The notes under the pieces are model-generated. The model had not been told where the DNA came from. It did no database searches and was given only the letters and a program-made list of their open reading frames with translations. Below are positions 56,209 through 62,371 of a stretch of DNA of 64,000 nucleotides, piece after piece. How positions within the stretch are numbered: the first letter of the stretch is position 1; the number at the start of each line of letters is the position of its first letter. A program made the translations under genes and the position numbers. Source of the stretch: Escherichia phage vB_EcoP_EP32B; sequence record OR544955. One strand, written 5' to 3'.

Positions 56209-56228
56209 GGGGACCTTCGGGTCCCTTT
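56209..56228 (+). terminator. Rho-independent terminator
   Basis: GGGGACC-TTCG-GGTCCC followed by TTT. Confidence 0.55.
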
Positions 56229-56255
56229 AGGGGGTCAAAATATTTTTAAAAAGTA

Positions 56256-56290
56256 GTGTACATGCTTTTAGGATATGTTATTATAGACCT
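56256..56290 (+). promoter_or_regulatory. PeSL-like early promoter
   Basis: GTGTAC -35 variant; TATGTTATTATAGACCTATCG. Confidence 0.5.
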
Positions 56291-56322
56291 ATCGAAACGA
56301 AATGAGTAAATTGGAGAATAAA

Positions 56323-57303
56323 ATGTTCAACGTTCAAATCAAAAAAGGTATCTATCGTAATAACGAAATCTCTGGTTCTTATGTTGCCACAAAGACCTGG
56401 TTCCCGGCAAAGCTTAATCCTGAATGTTCCCACTTAGGTGATGGTAAAATTTTCGTTATGATTGATGGTTCTGAACGTGGAGTATGGGTCTTCAAATCAG
56501 ACATCGTAATGGAAGGAGTTGAGACATCACCGGTTGCAGTTGTTGAAAGCACTGAAGATATGAAAACTCGTATCAACAAACGCTTTAAAGTAATGAACAT
56601 GATGACGAATGGCATTATCGATGGTAAAATTCGTTCACTCATTATTTCAGGTGCAGCTGGTATTGGTAAGACGTATTCTCTGGATAAAGCACTTAATAAC
56701 GCTAATGATAATGGTTTCATCAAATACAAAAGCATTAATGGTAAAATCTCCGGTATTGGCCTTTACGAACAACTTTGGCTCAACCGTGATGCAGACAGCG
56801 TTCTCTTAATCGACGACGTTTACGTATTCTCGGATATGGACATCTTGAACCTTCTTAAAGCAGCATTAGATACTGGAGATAAACGCAAAGTTTGCTGGAG
56901 CACGGCGTCATCTTATCTCGATGATAAGGGTATTGATAAAGAATTTGAGTTTGAAGGTACTATCGTTTTCATTACAAACGTTGATATCGATAAAGAGTTA
57001 GAACGCGGTTCGAAACTTGCTCCGCACCTTCAAGCTTTAGTATCTCGTTCAGTGTATCTCGACCTTGGAGTACACTCTAATGAAGAGATTATGGTTCGAG
57101 TTGAAGATGTAATATTATCTACTGACATGATGCAGAAACGTGGTCTGACGGATGCAGAAACGTATAAAGCATTGTCCTGGATGAAGGCTAACGTATCTCG
57201 TCTTCGCAATGTATCATTACGTACGGCTCTTTATGTAGCAGATTTTATTTCAACTGATAAAGATGGTTGGGAGGAAATCTCCGAAGTAACTTTACTGAAA
57301 TAA
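56323..57303 (+). CDS. AAA+ family ATPase with N-terminal extra domain
   Basis: 326 aa; Walker A GAAGIGKT, Walker B VLLIDDV, sensor-1-like FITN. Confidence 0.6.
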   Translation: MFNVQIKKGIYRNNEISGSYVATKTWFPAKLNPECSHLGDGKIFVMIDGSERGVWVFKSDIVMEGVETSPVAVVESTEDMKTRINKRFKVMNMMTNGIIDGKIRSLIISGAAGIGKTYSLDKALNNANDNGFIKYKSINGKISGIGLYEQLWLNRDADSVLLIDDVYVFSDMDILNLLKAALDTGDKRKVCWSTASSYLDDKGIDKEFEFEGTIVFITNVDIDKELERGSKLAPHLQALVSRSVYLDLGVHSNEEIMVRVEDVILSTDMMQKRGLTDAETYKALSWMKANVSRLRNVSLRTALYVADFISTDKDGWEEISEVTLLK

Positions 57304-57441
57304 GCTTATAGGAAGTTCTGAGGTAACAAAAGCCATAAAGATGAATAATCATATGGCTTACCTCAAAGAAGGACACCAGGAACCTACTGAGGGCATAGAA
57401 ATATTTAAAAATAATGTTGTACAAATCAAAGAGGCTATGTT

Positions 57442-57729
57442 ATGGATTTTATGCAAAAAATTAAAGCCGCAGTCGAACTGTATGCTCATCGTATGGTTAG
57501 TTCTACAATGCAATATAGCGAGGAGGTTCGCCAGGACTCTTCCTTGAAAGGAAAAACTAAAGCCTTAATTACCTTAGACCGTTTGCAAAAGAATGTCATA
57601 GAGATGCTCCAGTACGACAAGGGTGTATATAAGAAAGAACAGGAAGAGAAACTTAAATCTGAAAAATTACAAAAAATCCCGAAGTCGGTTTGGTTCAGTG
57701 GAAAAAATACCGAAAAAAGTTTCTTTTAG
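57442..57729 (+). CDS. Hypothetical basic protein
   Basis: 95 aa; AAGAGG SD. Confidence 0.45.
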   Translation: MDFMQKIKAAVELYAHRMVSSTMQYSEEVRQDSSLKGKTKALITLDRLQKNVIEMLQYDKGVYKKEQEEKLKSEKLQKIPKSVWFSGKNTEKSFF

Positions 57730-57731
57730 TT

Positions 57732-57765
57732 GTTTACAAGGTCTATGTTTATGTTATTATAGACC
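57732..57765 (+). promoter_or_regulatory. PeSL-like early promoter with stem-loop
   Basis: GTTTAC 57732-57737; TATGTTATTATAG; inverted repeat GGTCTAT/ATAGACC. Confidence 0.55.
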
Positions 57766-57787
57766 TATCAACTACTGGAGGTAAAAC

Positions 57788-58315
57788 ATGAACGCTAAAG
57801 ATATTTTCAACCTGGTAAATTATAACGACGGTAAATTTAAATCCGAAGCACAAAGCAAGTTCTTTAATGACGTTGCTTATGGTAACGAGATTACTGTGGA
57901 CGGAGGTCAGATTTTCAAATCTCGCTGGAATTGGATTGTTATCATCGATTCAGTTGGAATTGTGGAAGTCTACAAAAACACTAACAAAAAACGTACATTA
58001 TTCTGGTCTCGTGAAACTAACGAGCAGTACAAAAAGGATAAAGCATCTCGTTTATCCAAAGTAACCCAGGAAGATATCGAGTTTATCAAGAAAGATATCG
58101 AGATGTACGAAAATTTAATCGCTGAAGACCAGGCAGTACTCGATAAGTTTGATGAAATTAAAGCTTCTCGTGAAATCCCTGACTTCATGAAAGAAACAGT
58201 AAACGAACGATACGCTCTCACTTCAGAACGTATTGCAAACTATACAAAACAGAAATCAGAACGTATTAGTACTCTTCGGAAATTTGAAGAACGTTTAAAG
58301 ACGGTTCACGCATAA
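57788..58315 (+). CDS. Hypothetical protein
   Basis: 175 aa; GGAGG SD. Confidence 0.5.
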   Translation: MNAKDIFNLVNYNDGKFKSEAQSKFFNDVAYGNEITVDGGQIFKSRWNWIVIIDSVGIVEVYKNTNKKRTLFWSRETNEQYKKDKASRLSKVTQEDIEFIKKDIEMYENLIAEDQAVLDKFDEIKASREIPDFMKETVNERYALTSERIANYTKQKSERISTLRKFEERLKTVHA

Positions 58316-58318
58316 ACG

Positions 58319-58342
58319 CTTTACCCAAGGACGGGTTATAAT
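58319..58342 (+). promoter_or_regulatory. Early sigma70-like promoter
   Basis: CTTTAC -35, TATAAT -10 at 58337-58342. Confidence 0.5.
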
Positions 58343-58377
58343 GGTTTTGAGTTCCAATTCAATCTGAGGAAATAGTT

Positions 58378-59373
58378 ATGAGCATTACATCTGATGCTGT
58401 AAAACATGAAATTAACGGTTTATGTGCTTCACAGATTAAAGTGTGGTTTAAAGACCATAACGATCGCAGAGCACTTAATTATGAGCAAATTGCTATCCAA
58501 GTTCATCAATTACTGACTAGTAAATTTGATTTTCATATGCCGTCTGAAATCTATACTAATCTACCGCGAGCGCTTATTAAAGCGTGTAAAGGTTACGGAA
58601 AATCAATGGCTGATGGAATCTTCAGCGCGCTGAATAAACTTAACGTTCTGTCGATGATTAACTCTAACAACATCCTGCGTAATCTAGGACGTACTGATTT
58701 GTTCGGTCGTGAACAGTGTAAAATGCCTTTGAAATGGATTGTTGCTCATCTTAACGAGAACCAAACACGTTTTATGGCCGTATCAGCACGCTTACAAATG
58801 GGCCTAGATCGTCAGATGAACTTTAAAACTCATCCACGTTATTCAGGTTCAACAGACTTTTATAAATGTGAGCTTCAAAAGGTCGGTGGCAAAACCGTCT
58901 TAGTAGTTCGTGTAACGTTTGAAGGACGACGTCAAGGATATTTTGACCTAATCGGCTCTGGTCTTAAACATTGTGGATTTATTGACGAAGTTGATATCAA
59001 GCGAGACGGCATTGGATACCGTATTGGATATGTTTGTACTCTTAAAGAAGAGATTTCAGGACCAGCACCAGGACTAAAAGACGTTAGATATAAAGACGAG
59101 CTCATTGAAGAAATAAAAGAAGTTGAATATGATATCAACCAAGAAGATGCTCTTAAAGACCTTATTGATGAACTAAACCAAGACGTTATTCCGGTTCAGA
59201 AATTTGAATCAAAACACGCTGAGCAAATCAAATACTTTGAAGCTTTGATTAACGAACTTAATGTAACTATTCAACAAACTGATGATGAAATCTCACGATT
59301 AGCAGGCTTAAACGGTAAAAATAAAACAGAACGAGCTAATCTTATTCAGGTAGTAAAACTTCTTAAGGAATGA
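58378..59373 (+). CDS. Hypothetical protein with C-terminal coiled coil
   Basis: 331 aa; GAGGA SD. Confidence 0.5.
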   Translation: MSITSDAVKHEINGLCASQIKVWFKDHNDRRALNYEQIAIQVHQLLTSKFDFHMPSEIYTNLPRALIKACKGYGKSMADGIFSALNKLNVLSMINSNNILRNLGRTDLFGREQCKMPLKWIVAHLNENQTRFMAVSARLQMGLDRQMNFKTHPRYSGSTDFYKCELQKVGGKTVLVVRVTFEGRRQGYFDLIGSGLKHCGFIDEVDIKRDGIGYRIGYVCTLKEEISGPAPGLKDVRYKDELIEEIKEVEYDINQEDALKDLIDELNQDVIPVQKFESKHAEQIKYFEALINELNVTIQQTDDEISRLAGLNGKNKTERANLIQVVKLLKE

Positions 59374-59402
59374 TGTACAACCAAGGATGGTTGGAGTATA
59401 AT
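59374..59402 (+). promoter_or_regulatory. Early promoter cassette (copy A of a 26 nt direct repeat)
   Basis: TGTACA -35; ACAACCAAGGATGGTTGGAGTATAAT identical to 60264-60289. Confidence 0.55.
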
Positions 59403-59428
59403 AAATTTTTCAACATGAGGAATATAAA

Positions 59429-60196
59429 ATGGCTTTTATTACACGTAGAGAACTTATCAAAGAATTTACCTCGAACGCATATACTCCAGGACCTAATCCT
59501 ATCCGTATGCCTGTAAAGACTCCTGAAGAGATTGAGGAAATCTGTTCATATTATGGGATTACTTCTCGTAAGTTTACTCAATTTGAATGCGTTACTAACA
59601 CACCCGTTAAAGAGTTCATTAAAAATGGTGAGTTCAGCCGTTTATTAGCCAAACAGAAACTTCGTAATTTTTGTATTGGCGGTGAAGGACAATATTTCGC
59701 TAAGCAGTTTCGGAATAACCTTAACAATCTGATGGCCATTGCTTCTCGTATTCGTCCTCAAGCAATTAATATGAAACATTTGAAATATACTTACGATAAG
59801 TTGGAAATCATGGTTATCAGTGAGAATGAGTTCACTCTCACGTATAAACCTAAGAATGATAACGTTGCTCGTGTATTCCACCAAGCGTTGGAAGTGTTAG
59901 GTGATAATATTCACCAGATTAAAGCAATTTATTCTCGTGAGCTTAATATTATCAACCCTATCAAGAATAAGGGCCATATCGCTATCCAGGCTCGTGTATC
60001 TATTGGTAAAAAGGTTCCTGCGCCATGGTGGCACAAAGACTCCGAATATTATCAAAATCTTAAAAAGGAAAATGCACTAATGACCTTCTTCCGGCCGAAG
60101 ATTACCATTACAATCAAATCAAGGCCACTATGGACCAACTGTCTGTTGAACTTGACAAAGCACAAGCTAAGCTTCGTGATGCTCAAAGTGTTGTAA
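59429..60196 (+). CDS. Hypothetical protein; C-terminus possibly frameshifted
   Basis: 255 aa; last ~35 aa hydrophobic/low-complexity while an overlapping frame (to 60254) encodes a coiled-coil tail like those of neighbouring ORFs. Confidence 0.45.
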   Translation: MAFITRRELIKEFTSNAYTPGPNPIRMPVKTPEEIEEICSYYGITSRKFTQFECVTNTPVKEFIKNGEFSRLLAKQKLRNFCIGGEGQYFAKQFRNNLNNLMAIASRIRPQAINMKHLKYTYDKLEIMVISENEFTLTYKPKNDNVARVFHQALEVLGDNIHQIKAIYSRELNIINPIKNKGHIAIQARVSIGKKVPAPWWHKDSEYYQNLKKENALMTFFRPKITITIKSRPLWTNCLLNLTKHKLSFVMLKVL

Positions 60197-60259
60197 CGAA
60201 TCTCCAGTTGCAGTACTCTAAACTTTTTAACGCAATGAATGCATTAAAATCATAAATCA

Positions 60260-60289
60260 GTTTACAACCAAGGATGGTTGGAGTATAAT
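60260..60289 (+). promoter_or_regulatory. Early promoter cassette (copy B of the 26 nt direct repeat)
   Basis: GTTTAC 60260-60265; TATAAT 60284-60289. Confidence 0.55.
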
Positions 60290-60318
60290 GAAATCTATCT
60301 TAACGAGAGGAAAATATT

Positions 60319-61263
60319 ATGACACGTTCACATTACGTTGATTATTTTGCAGGTCTTATCGCTAACGTTCATGCCCAACGTGCTTCTGGTGCACTAGGAT
60401 TTGATGTTCCACACCGAGATGTAGTAAGTGGCATTCTTCGAGATTTTGGTACATACACAGGTCAAGAAAATCATATCTGTAAAGATACTCAGAATGCGTA
60501 TTCTCATTCATTAGGGACGCTGCTTCAATGGTTTAAACGTTCTCGTTTATTATCTTCTACTGTGGCTCGTGATAACATTAAAAACTTTATGAAGCCGAGC
60601 TTTATTAAATCTGTGACATCTAAAACCGATTTGGTTGAATTCACTATTGTTAATGATGTTAAAAAGGCTCATTTGGCTGATTGGTTCTCTACCATTCCTG
60701 AAACTAAATTTGCTGATAAATTTGCTTGTGAATTCAATAACCAAGTGAATATGCTTTTTAAACATTCACGTAAATTATTCACTGGCGGCGATGGCCGTAC
60801 AAATAAAGTTCATGTTAAAGATTGGGTTACTGCAGTATTCAAACCAACTGGTAATGGTAACGCATCGTTATCAATTGATATCCAGGTTCCTTATTATTAC
60901 TCACGTAATCTCGGTACCATGAAAGCCGAAGAAATTAATAAGCGCAACAAAACCATTCGTTCTCTGTCTTATAAACTTCGCATGATGTTACAGACTATGG
61001 ATGTTGTTGAAATGTTCGACGAAACCGAAGATAACGGTTCAATGTTATTCAGTTCTCGAATTAAAATTAAACTGAAGAACCCTAATGTGTTTAAGCCTAT
61101 TAAAGAACCTAAAGCAGAAAAGGTCGATATCATGGCCGAAGAACGCGAATATCTCAAATCTCGTCTGAAAGAAGTCGAAGCCCAGATTGCAGAACAAACT
61201 AAATCGTTAAAAGCTCTGAATGCGAAAGCGGACGGTTTACGAAATGCCATTGAGGTGTTATAA
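60319..61263 (+). CDS. Hypothetical protein with C-terminal coiled coil
   Basis: 314 aa; GAGAGG SD. Confidence 0.5.
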   Translation: MTRSHYVDYFAGLIANVHAQRASGALGFDVPHRDVVSGILRDFGTYTGQENHICKDTQNAYSHSLGTLLQWFKRSRLLSSTVARDNIKNFMKPSFIKSVTSKTDLVEFTIVNDVKKAHLADWFSTIPETKFADKFACEFNNQVNMLFKHSRKLFTGGDGRTNKVHVKDWVTAVFKPTGNGNASLSIDIQVPYYYSRNLGTMKAEEINKRNKTIRSLSYKLRMMLQTMDVVEMFDETEDNGSMLFSSRIKIKLKNPNVFKPIKEPKAEKVDIMAEEREYLKSRLKEVEAQIAEQTKSLKALNAKADGLRNAIEVL

Positions 61264-61568
61264 TGAACCTACGTCTTCTAGAGGATATTGATATGAGCAC
61301 TAATCATGGCTTGGTTAAGTTTATTGACGATAGTTCAAAGATTGAATTTGTTCAGCGAGATAAAATCCACGGTGAAGAAGAGTTCGTTCCTCCGGCATGG
61401 AACGAAATAATGAAAATGGTTGAACGACGTGAAAATGCTGCCAAATCGGCAGCAAAACATCCATGTCCGGAATGTGGAACTATCCAAGTCCAACTGGTTA
61501 ACTGGACCACTGATAACTTGAAATTGAAATGCCGTAAATGCTTCCACAAATTTGAGAGAACATTATAA
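61263..61568 (+). CDS. Small zinc-ribbon protein
   Basis: 101 aa; CPECG...CRKC. Confidence 0.5.
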   Translation: MNLRLLEDIDMSTNHGLVKFIDDSSKIEFVQRDKIHGEEEFVPPAWNEIMKMVERRENAAKSAAKHPCPECGTIQVQLVNWTTDNLKLKCRKCFHKFERTL

Positions 61569-61981
61569 TGAGATATAGCCTTCGTTGTTTTATCGCAGCT
61601 TTAGTTTTTGCCATCATTCCATTCATTTGGAACAGCCAGAATACTTACATGGAAACTAAAGTAATTCCTGTGGAGGTAGTGGAATTAATTTCAGGTCAAT
61701 CTACAGGAAAATATTCTAAATTGGAATTTATTGCAGTTTATAAAGATGAACAAGGTCGAGTTTTTGACAGGCATGTATCACCATCGTTTTATACGCTTCT
61801 TAATAAAGGTGATACGATAGCTATAGAAATTCGTGAGATGGATATCAAACAAACTACTAAAGATAACCTGATTTGGTTCTTTGGTACAGTGTTGATGTTC
61901 TCTATCGGTATCACAGGTTTTATTACATGCATTGTATTTGGTGTTGCATATTTAATCGATGAAAGGAAAAATAATGTTTAA
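61568..61981 (+). CDS. Membrane protein
   Basis: 137 aa; N- and C-terminal TM segments. Confidence 0.5.
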   Translation: MRYSLRCFIAALVFAIIPFIWNSQNTYMETKVIPVEVVELISGQSTGKYSKLEFIAVYKDEQGRVFDRHVSPSFYTLLNKGDTIAIEIREMDIKQTTKDNLIWFFGTVLMFSIGITGFITCIVFGVAYLIDERKNNV

Positions 61982-62237
61982 AGTGTACGGGTATGACTCT
62001 ACTATTCATAAATGCATTTATTGCGATAATGCGAAACGATTGCTGACTGTTAAGAAACAGCCATTCGAATTCATTAATGTTATGCCAGAAAAAGGTGTGT
62101 TCGATGATGAGAAAATTGCTGAGCTTCTGGTTAAGCTTGGCCGTGAATCACAAGTCGGATTGACTATGCCTCAAGTGTTTGCTCCTGATGGAACTTCGAT
62201 CGGTGGCTTTGACCAACTACGAGAATATTTTAAATGA
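61974..62237 (+). CDS. nrdC: Glutaredoxin/thioredoxin NrdC
   Basis: 87 aa from ATG 61974; CIYC active site; MFKVYGYDS...GGFDQLREYFK. Confidence 0.85.
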   Translation: MFKVYGYDSTIHKCIYCDNAKRLLTVKKQPFEFINVMPEKGVFDDEKIAELLVKLGRESQVGLTMPQVFAPDGTSIGGFDQLREYFK

Positions 62238-62371
62238 CAATGGTTACCATTACCGTTGAAGAATATAATCGCCTGCAAGCCATTGAAGAGCTTCTTTGGG
62301 AAATTGAATCTGATTTGCCATCTGGGCTAGAATCCTGGGTTGATTATGAAGAGATCAATAAGCTCCGCGGT
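62234..62371 (+). CDS. Possible 45 aa acidic small protein
   Basis: ATGA overlap with nrdC stop. Confidence 0.3.

Follow-up and report, generated by a model that had tools for sequence, protein, structure and literature searches.

The nrdC.5 homologue of Escherichia phage vB_EcoP_EP32B, a T4-like phage of the RB69 group (genus Mosigvirus), lies in the nrdC accessory-gene cluster and was examined within a 64,000-nucleotide stretch of the genome (sequence record OR544955), hereafter referred to as the window. The gene is represented by a 255-amino-acid (aa) open reading frame (ORF) located between nrdC.6 and nrdC.3 homologues of 331 and 314 aa, at the positions that a first-pass annotation of this DNA had described (Table 1). 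Two identical promoter-like repeats bracket the ORF. The locus region is 95 to 99% identical to approximately 150 Mosigvirus (RB69-group) genomes, and the genes for endonuclease VII and NrdC are found just downstream in the window. The 255-aa ORF does not end as nrdC.5 does in these relatives, and the gene is present in some of them and absent from others, which allowed us to compare intact, broken, and missing versions of the same gene.

Table 1. Features of the nrdC.6-nrdC.3 region, with positions in the window
Feature	Position	Strand	Details
Putative promoter upstream of nrdC.6 (CGCTTTA...TATAAT)	58317..58342	+	Equivalent site in SA35RD annotated as T4-middle-promoter-like
nrdC.6 homologue, intact, 331 aa	58378..59373	+	29% identity to T4 NrdC.6 (E 1e-18); phrog_2257; RB69 equivalent annotated nrdC.6
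Putative promoter copy 1, upstream of nrdC.5	59374..59402	+	-35 TGTACA 59374-59379, N17, -10 TATAAT 59397-59402; 10/12 consensus positions
nrdC.5 homologue, disrupted, 255-aa ORF	59429..60196	+	RB69 equivalent annotated nrdC.5
Native N-terminal part of nrdC.5, codons 1-216	59429..60076	+	First part of the 255-aa ORF; 100% identity to mobillu NrdC.5 over 217 aa
Deletion junction, 133 bp absent	60076..60077	+	...GGAAAATGCA/CTAATGACC...; from alignments against relatives
Wrong-frame tail of the 255-aa ORF, residues 218-255 (38 aa)	60077..60196	+	L MTFFRPKITITIKSRPLWTNCLLNLTKHKLSFVMLKVL, then stop; artefact of the deletion
Orphaned native C-terminal segment, codons 262-319 and stop	60079..60255	+	Heptad-rich predicted long helix; includes a mechanical 41-aa ATG ORF, 60130-60255
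Putative promoter copy 2, upstream of nrdC.3	60261..60289	+	-35 TTTACA 60261-60266, N17, -10 TATAAT 60284-60289; 11/12 consensus positions
nrdC.3 homologue, intact, 314 aa	60319..61263	+	57% identity to T4 NrdC.3 (E 6e-123); homologues carry Pfam PF26897

Disruption of nrdC.5

In the relatives inspected, a subset of the gene-bearing records described below, nrdC.5 is one continuous ORF of 930 to 960 bp. The intact protein has 319 aa in mobillu, NBG1, O157 typing phage 6, KMB38, PhAPEC2, and SA35RD and 309 to 311 aa in moha, PHB12, and TU01. Alignment of the window to these sequences reveals an internal gap of 133 bp. As 133 is 44 x 3 + 1, translation leaves the native frame at the junction and adds 38 wrong-frame residues before a stop at 60194-60196; a loss of 132 bp that spared the T of TCT would have remained in frame. 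The alternate frame is open from 60064 to a stop at 60253-60255, reading ...NDLLPAEDYHYNQIKATMDQLSVELDKAQAKLRDAQSVV...ALKS before the stop (...NDLLPAEDYHYNQIKATMDQLSVELDKAQAKLRDAQSVVTNLQLQYSKLFNAMNALKS). The first-pass annotation, which had placed a coiled-coil tail in another frame across 60062-60254, was therefore essentially right: the C terminus of the 255-aa ORF is out of frame, and the other frame holds the true heptad-rich tail, which is strongly conserved in relatives. Its suggestion of a small frameshift within 60050-60130 did not hold, as the lesion is the 133-bp internal deletion, and we found no evidence for the small overlapping gene that it had offered instead, the relatives having one continuous ORF. 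We likewise rejected a point frameshift in the A5 run (60062-60066), or a homopolymer error there: the gap in the alignment measures 133 bp, and relatives have an identical A run.

Profile comparisons place the ORF in Pfam family DUF7235 (PF23882) with 279.6 bits (gathering cutoff, 30; E 4.7e-83). The match covers profile positions 1 to 209 of 307 only and does not extend over the C-terminal helical tail. Intact NrdC.5 of mobillu matches the profile over its full length (415.8 bits; E 1.6e-124), as does NrdC.5 of T4 (420.6 bits; E 5.3e-126). Partial coverage of the profile, together with a tail that lies out of frame at 60079-60255, identifies the window copy as a disrupted member of the family.

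The deletion appears to be private to this phage. The nrdC.5 site is held by 132 phage records, and those listed, including all 18 at 99% identity or higher, lack the deletion: a 101-nt query across the junction aligns to them in two pieces that span 234 nt, or 210 nt in one record. The junction sequence was also absent from viral, metagenome, and genome contig collections, and a hypothetical in-frame junction (132 bp deleted) was absent from viral contigs and phage records. A protein-position index contained neither the 255-aa product nor the two flanking proteins in exact form, but the genome itself is missing from that index, which makes the look-up uninformative. Relative to mobillu, the N-terminal 216 codons carry five synonymous changes and no nonsynonymous ones, and comparison of the orphaned tail with NBG1 and O157 typing phage 6 shows no nonsynonymous difference. 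As neither the remnant nor the tail has accumulated nonsynonymous changes against its closest relatives, the deletion looks recent, or else it is an artefact.

The lost part of the gene is the one in which relatives diverge most, by sequence as well as by length. On the left, the deletion ends at the last base conserved before a linker; on the right, it reaches one base into the conserved TCTAA beyond the linker. In an AlphaFold 2 model of an intact orthologue (from a shallow alignment; mean predicted local distance difference test score [pLDDT], 44.8), residues approximately 212 to 266 are unstructured (pLDDT approximately 25), and residues 267 to 318 form one long helix (pLDDT 70 to 85). The deletion took almost exactly the hypervariable, predicted-disordered linker (approximately aa 217/218 to 261) between the N-terminal domain and the modelled C-terminal helix. 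A profile search against PDB sequences returned just weak coiled-coil matches, with E values of 0.1 or higher. Taken together with the promoter repeats discussed below, we conclude that the 255-aa ORF is very probably a recently inactivated copy of nrdC.5, broken by a 133-bp internal deletion inside a promoter-flanked cassette that could be excised or inserted.

Several points weigh against this conclusion. The ends of the deletion share no microhomology, and a hairpin that would juxtapose them folds no better than shuffled controls (z = -1.0). Deletion through microhomology or slipped strands was accordingly rejected, the nearby AAATG motifs being out of register with the junction. Spontaneous deletions of T4 in nonessential regions, which arise where homology is short or lacking (Mosig et al. 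1998 and Singer et al. 1982, as cited in PMC2839356), are likewise internal deletions in a dispensable early-gene region; unlike those, the deletion in the window is small (133 bp), intragenic, and without junction microhomology, and it ends at the edges of a hypervariable linker. A further point is that the break could be an error of sequencing, assembly, or consensus calling, such that the phage carries an intact nrdC.5 or an in-frame 132-bp linker deletion from which one base was dropped in the consensus. Such an error would account for an allele that is absent from 132 phage records and from scans of viral, metagenome, and genome contigs, for the lack of decay in the coding sequence, and for a deletion that misses the reading frame by one base and matches the limits of the linker. 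However, the junction GCA/CTA is not a homopolymer, no flanking repeats are present on which an assembly could collapse, and the in-frame junction that this explanation calls for is itself missing from the viral contigs and phage records. A recent, real deletion explains the absence of decay equally well, and deletions arise readily in the nonessential nrdC cluster of T4 (PMC9391042). We therefore consider an artefact unlikely.

If the deletion is real, the broken gene might still yield a product. Slippage by -1 at CTT-AAA-AAG (60059-60067) would produce a linker-less NrdC.5 of approximately 275 aa, possibly partly functional, in which the N-terminal domain is joined to the coiled-coil tail via residues GKCT. 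No stop interrupts the -1 frame between 60064 and the end of the native tail, slipping between 60064 and 60080 would restore that tail, and A-AAG is a slippage-prone site in E. coli. However, the heptamer T-AAA-AAG (60061-60067) does not follow the canonical X-XXY-YYZ pattern, and re-pairing is perfect for the A-site codon alone. All relatives also have this site, and their -1 frame closes within a few codons (KGKCIV, then stop), which indicates that it was not selected for frameshifting. We identified no stimulatory structure, and the yield would at best be a by-product of a few percent, making such a bypass highly improbable. A conserved two-frame architecture was not seen in the ten relatives examined, each of which has a single ORF; the RB69 reference is the exception and has different indels. 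A programmed -1 frameshift gene was rejected on this ground and for want of a canonical slippery heptamer. It is no more credible that the gene has been split, with the 255-aa protein and the 41-aa ORF (60130-60255, MDQLSVEL...) both made and either working separately or reassembling. An ATG at 60130 does follow an AAGG by 5 nt, and the model shows the tail as a long, autonomous helix, yet both ATG and AAGG are ordinary coding sequence in all relatives (the ATM codons), and the arrangement exists in this genome alone. The 41-aa ORF moreover begins 17 residues into the conserved tail, and nothing indicates selection on it; we give a split gene very little credence.

The RB69 reference genome (AY303349) has a frame defect of its own in nrdC.5 (positions 1610-2606 of the locus analysed): compared with SA35RD and PhAPEC2, its linker shows four deletions of 1 nt each. 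The annotated 300-aa RB69 NrdC.5 consequently terminates with the wrong-frame peptide found in the window ORF (FFRPKITIT...MLKVL). Either RB69 truly has a pseudogene here, or the 2003 sequence contains errors.

Promoter-like repeats and probable exchange of the nrdC.5 cassette

The first-pass annotation had reported two identical 26-nt sequences around the ORF, and the 26-mer ACAACCAAGGATGGTTGGAGTATAAT indeed occurs in exactly two copies in the window, at 59377-59402 and 60264-60289. No further copies were found in the window at up to three mismatches (0 expected from 100 shuffles). The exact match reaches 27 nt with one additional 5' base (59376-59402 and 60263-60289), and over a slightly longer stretch (59376-59405 versus 60263-60292), 29 of 30 nt agree. 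Early promoters of the T4 group have the consensus TTTACW-N17-TAYWAT (PMC4122927), which both copies fit as sigma70-type elements with 17-nt spacers, and a Shine-Dalgarno sequence and an ATG lie downstream of each. Copy 2 is the best match to the promoter consensus between 55.5 and 64 kb, and the annotations of NBG1 and SA35RD mark a promoter at this site. From these features, we infer that nrdC.5 and nrdC.3 each have one of the two 27-nt sequences as its early promoter. The spacer of both copies contains a potential hairpin, CAACCA-AGGA-TGGTTG, with a 6-bp stem (DNA fold, -5.5 kcal/mol; z = -2.9 to -3.5).

The repeats are well preserved among gene-bearing relatives, with the exact 27-mer present at both sites in eight of the ten inspected and upstream of nrdC.5 in nine; KMB38 differs there by one T-to-C change. 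The identical change in the hairpin loop region (AAGGATGG to AAGGACGG) is found in copy 1 of KMB38 and in copy 2 of TU01, and it also matches a variant in the promoter before nrdC.6. This sharing across copies is compatible with gene conversion between them or with recurrent mutation. By its sequence, the putative promoter before nrdC.6 resembles a middle promoter with a MotA box, and it contains a shorter relative of the CCAAGGA(C/T)GG hairpin motif.

Among 153 informative related records, nrdC.5 is present in 132 and absent in 21, the latter found with a 201-nt probe spanning the nrdC.6-promoter-nrdC.3 junction. Nine gene-minus loci were fetched, and the junction was read in eight of them (p000v, AV109, WFK, G2285, F2, JM10, F27, and PTE-Eco05), the ninth, ESCO47, having a variant promoter. 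All eight junctions consist of a single hybrid promoter that combines the left flank of copy 1, namely the end of nrdC.6 (...GGAATGATG-TACAACC...), with the right flank of copy 2 (...TATAAT-GAATCTATCTTAAC...ATGACAC), precisely what an exchange inside the repeat should yield. Four haplotypes occur immediately 3' of the repeat (GAATCTATC, CTTTCTATC, GAACCTATC, and GAATTTATC), and each is found in both gene-plus and gene-minus phages. Because this haplotype site adjoins the repeat and its variants are common to both groups, the pattern requires multiple exchanges inside the repeat: at least two and probably four independent events, with crossover within approximately 27 to 30 nt of homology. In neighbour-joining trees of both flanking genes, which are without bootstrap support and only indicative, gene-minus phages are scattered among gene-plus ones.

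It is very likely that the two direct 27-nt repeats make nrdC.5 an excisable and insertable cassette, and that homologous exchange within them has repeatedly given rise to relatives without nrdC.5 in which one hybrid promoter would drive nrdC.3. The direction of exchange is inferred to be excision; a further point on the other side of the balance is that loss in these relatives and gain in the others cannot be polarised. The proposal in the first-pass annotation that the repeats are a substrate for excision or duplication agrees well with the 21 records that lack the gene exactly between the repeats and with a footprint in moha. In that phage (MN850590; positions 1533-1834 of the locus analysed), nrdC.6 is followed by an additional 66-aa hydrophobic ORF, and a residual piece of the nrdC.5 3' terminus (approximately 25 to 35 nt, ...AATGAATGCATTAAAATCATAA) and a copy-2-type -35 element come between this ORF and nrdC.5. 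The arrangement looks like the footprint of a cassette insertion or duplication at the promoter repeat.

A comparable system has been described in T4-like phages, in which recombination between repeated early promoters of the promoter-early stem-loop (PeSL) type excises or inserts accessory genes and mini-circles have been detected (Arbiol et al. 2010, PMC2839356); these cassettes were also treated by Comeau et al. 2014 (PMC4122927). As in PeSL cassettes, a nonessential gene of a hyperplastic region is flanked by repeats of a strong putative early promoter of the sigma70 type, with a Shine-Dalgarno sequence and start codon after each. Close relatives likewise differ in whether they have the gene, and a chimeric promoter remains where the crossover fell within the repeated element. 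In PeSL elements, a stable stem-loop (terminator or attenuator) lies just upstream of the promoter, whereas the only hairpin at this locus is inside the spacer between -35 and -10, which tells against equating the two. A scan for terminators at 59340-59375 and 60230-60262 found no stem-loop upstream of either promoter, and copy 1 abuts the stop codon of nrdC.6 and is thus without an intergenic AT-rich region upstream of its -35 element. Compared with PeSL cassettes, the exact homology at this locus amounts to only 27 nt. Neither PMC2839356 nor PMC4122927 mentions RB69 or nrdC. The nrdC.5 locus would therefore seem to work like a PeSL cassette without being a textbook member of the class.

A canonical PeSL-like arrangement is found elsewhere in the window, upstream of nrdC.10 (56210-56295), where a GC-rich stem-loop (GGGGACCTTCGGGTCCC, then GGTCCCTTTAGGGGGTC, then a T run) is followed by an AT-rich stretch and an early promoter (GTGTACA...TATTAT). 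Similar early promoters recur across the window as six repeat families (D1 to D6).

Hairpins with a constant AGGA (or AAGGAC) loop in the spacer are shared by nrdC-cluster promoters of T4 and the window. They occur at 58317-58342, 59374-59402, and 60261-60289 in the window and in the T4 intergenic regions between nrdC.4 and nrdC.3, nrdC.5 and nrdC.4, and nrdC.8 and nrdC.7. The stems differ and stay complementary (CAACCA/TGGTTG, AGCCA/TGGCT, CCACA/TGTGG, ATACCA/TGGTAT, and ACCC/GGGT), and GGAG follows the hairpin in the window copies. We also asked whether AGGA-loop hairpins form a genome-wide family in the window; apart from the two promoter copies none qualified, a yield no higher than in shuffles overall, and the idea was dropped. 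In relatives, a third exact copy of the 27-nt promoter is found outside the window, in the dda/dexA/motB region (phiE142, KU255730, 22151-24453), where it has the same upstream CAGTT and a downstream CTTTCTATCTTAAC flank and precedes a gene starting MNINT.... Such dispersal of three identical copies suggests that the promoter either is mobile or has undergone homogenisation through gene conversion.

These observations allow a more far-reaching explanation, which we regard as doubtful, in which the 27-nt element would be a dedicated module beyond a promoter that mobilises counter-defence cassettes such as nrdC.5 between co-infecting phages. Its basis is the AGGA-loop hairpin with mutually compensating stems before nrdC.3, nrdC.4, and nrdC.7 of T4 and before nrdC.6, nrdC.5, and nrdC.3 of the window, together with the exact third copy located approximately 40 kb away in the dda/dexA/motB region of relatives. 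Under such a scheme, gene conversion would keep the element uniform, and a phage protein would perhaps recognise it, or it would perhaps be processed in read-through RNA.

Neighbouring genes of the nrdC cluster

Gene names in the cluster were assigned from the RB69 annotation and from BLASTP searches against T4 proteins, giving the order nrdC.10,.9,.8,.6,.5,.3,.2,.7, and nrdC in the window. The order of nrdC.8, nrdC.6, nrdC.5, nrdC.3, and nrdC.2 agrees with the RB69 annotation, whereas the T4 order is.6,.5,.4,.3. Compared with T4, the region at 56300-62240 has nrdC.7 between nrdC.2 and nrdC, whereas T4 nrdC.7 follows nrdC.8, and it lacks nrdC.4 and nrdC.1. These differences in gene order are consistent with cassette shuffling in a hyperplastic region. 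In many deposited Mosigvirus genomes, the genes nrdC.2 through nrdC.10 bear the label thioredoxin; PHROG and Pfam profile searches gave no match of these nrdC-cluster proteins to a thioredoxin family, and the labels look like annotation carried over from the gene names.

The first-pass annotation had likened the tail of the alternate frame to the C termini of the flanking 331-aa and 314-aa ORFs and had called for an alignment of the three. The tails are similarly heptad rich, and the likeness ends there. The NrdC.6, NrdC.5, and NrdC.3 proteins align at 14 to 16% identity with MAFFT, show nothing significant among each other by BLASTP, and belong to different PHROG and Pfam families; the three ORFs appear largely unrelated. 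Comparison of the three family profiles with hhalign gave probabilities of 3.5%, 0.6%, and 0.4%, from profiles that are shallow because word-indexed searches returned close relatives only. An exhaustive phmmer search of 1.84 billion representative proteins with intact NrdC.5 as the query listed three proteins, none established as NrdC.3-like or NrdC.6-like, and two of the three are clear NrdC.5 relatives. Only a heptad-patterned C-terminal tail and the motif L-x-N-A-[ILM]-x-x-L-K are shared. In NrdC.5, 94% of the a/d heptad positions of the tail are hydrophobic. The tails end in SKLFNAMNALKS, DGLRNAIEVL, and ANLIQVVKLLKE in the window and in SKLNNALNALN, NGLRNAIEVLK, and DRLEQALQLIK in NrdC.5, NrdC.3, and NrdC.4 of T4. 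Paralogy of the three proteins was rejected as unsupported by BLASTP, MAFFT, hhalign, and phmmer. They are not detectably paralogous and appear alike in their coiled-coil-like tails; the shallow profiles leave room for a very remote homology.

NrdC.5 and its possible counter-defence role in the RB69 group

NrdC.5 of T4 is reported to counteract the SIR2-domain defence protein Dsr1, and plasmid-borne nrdC.5 restored the plating of a T4 deletion clone on MG1655 with dsr1 from ECOR17 (Srikant, Guegler and Laub 2022, PMC9391042). The Mosigvirus gene resembles its T4 counterpart in several respects: it encodes a protein of the same Pfam family (DUF7235), lies downstream of nrdC.6 in the nrdC cluster, and is an early gene with its own putative promoter. 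The protein architecture is also shared, including the C terminus ...SKL(F/N)NA(M/L)NAL. Unlike in T4 NrdC.5, the Mosigvirus linker is different and hypervariable, and the window copy is truncated after residue 216/217. Anti-Dsr1 activity has been shown for T4 NrdC.5 alone, and the Mosigvirus protein is linked to it by 25% identity (mobillu versus T4, over 304 aa; E 2e-11), which tempers any transfer of function. By analogy with T4, this phage has probably lost a counter-defence against Dsr1 in the recent past, and the variable presence of the cassette among relatives would reflect fluctuating selection by host defences.

Across 153 genomes, a family with a likely counter-defence role behaves as a promoter-flanked cassette that has been repeatedly lost or gained at a 27-nt repeat, which extends the PeSL-type shuffling model to the RB69 group. 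In vB_EcoP_EP32B, nrdC.5 was apparently knocked out by a private deletion instead of by cassette exchange. The comparison also flags a problem in annotation, as the 300-aa NrdC.5 of the RB69 reference has a wrong-frame end. We view the locus as an instructive example of ordinary accessory-gene turnover that leaves current understanding unchanged. If the counter-defence has indeed been lost, sensitivity of this phage to Dsr1-carrying E. coli is a testable prediction about its host range.

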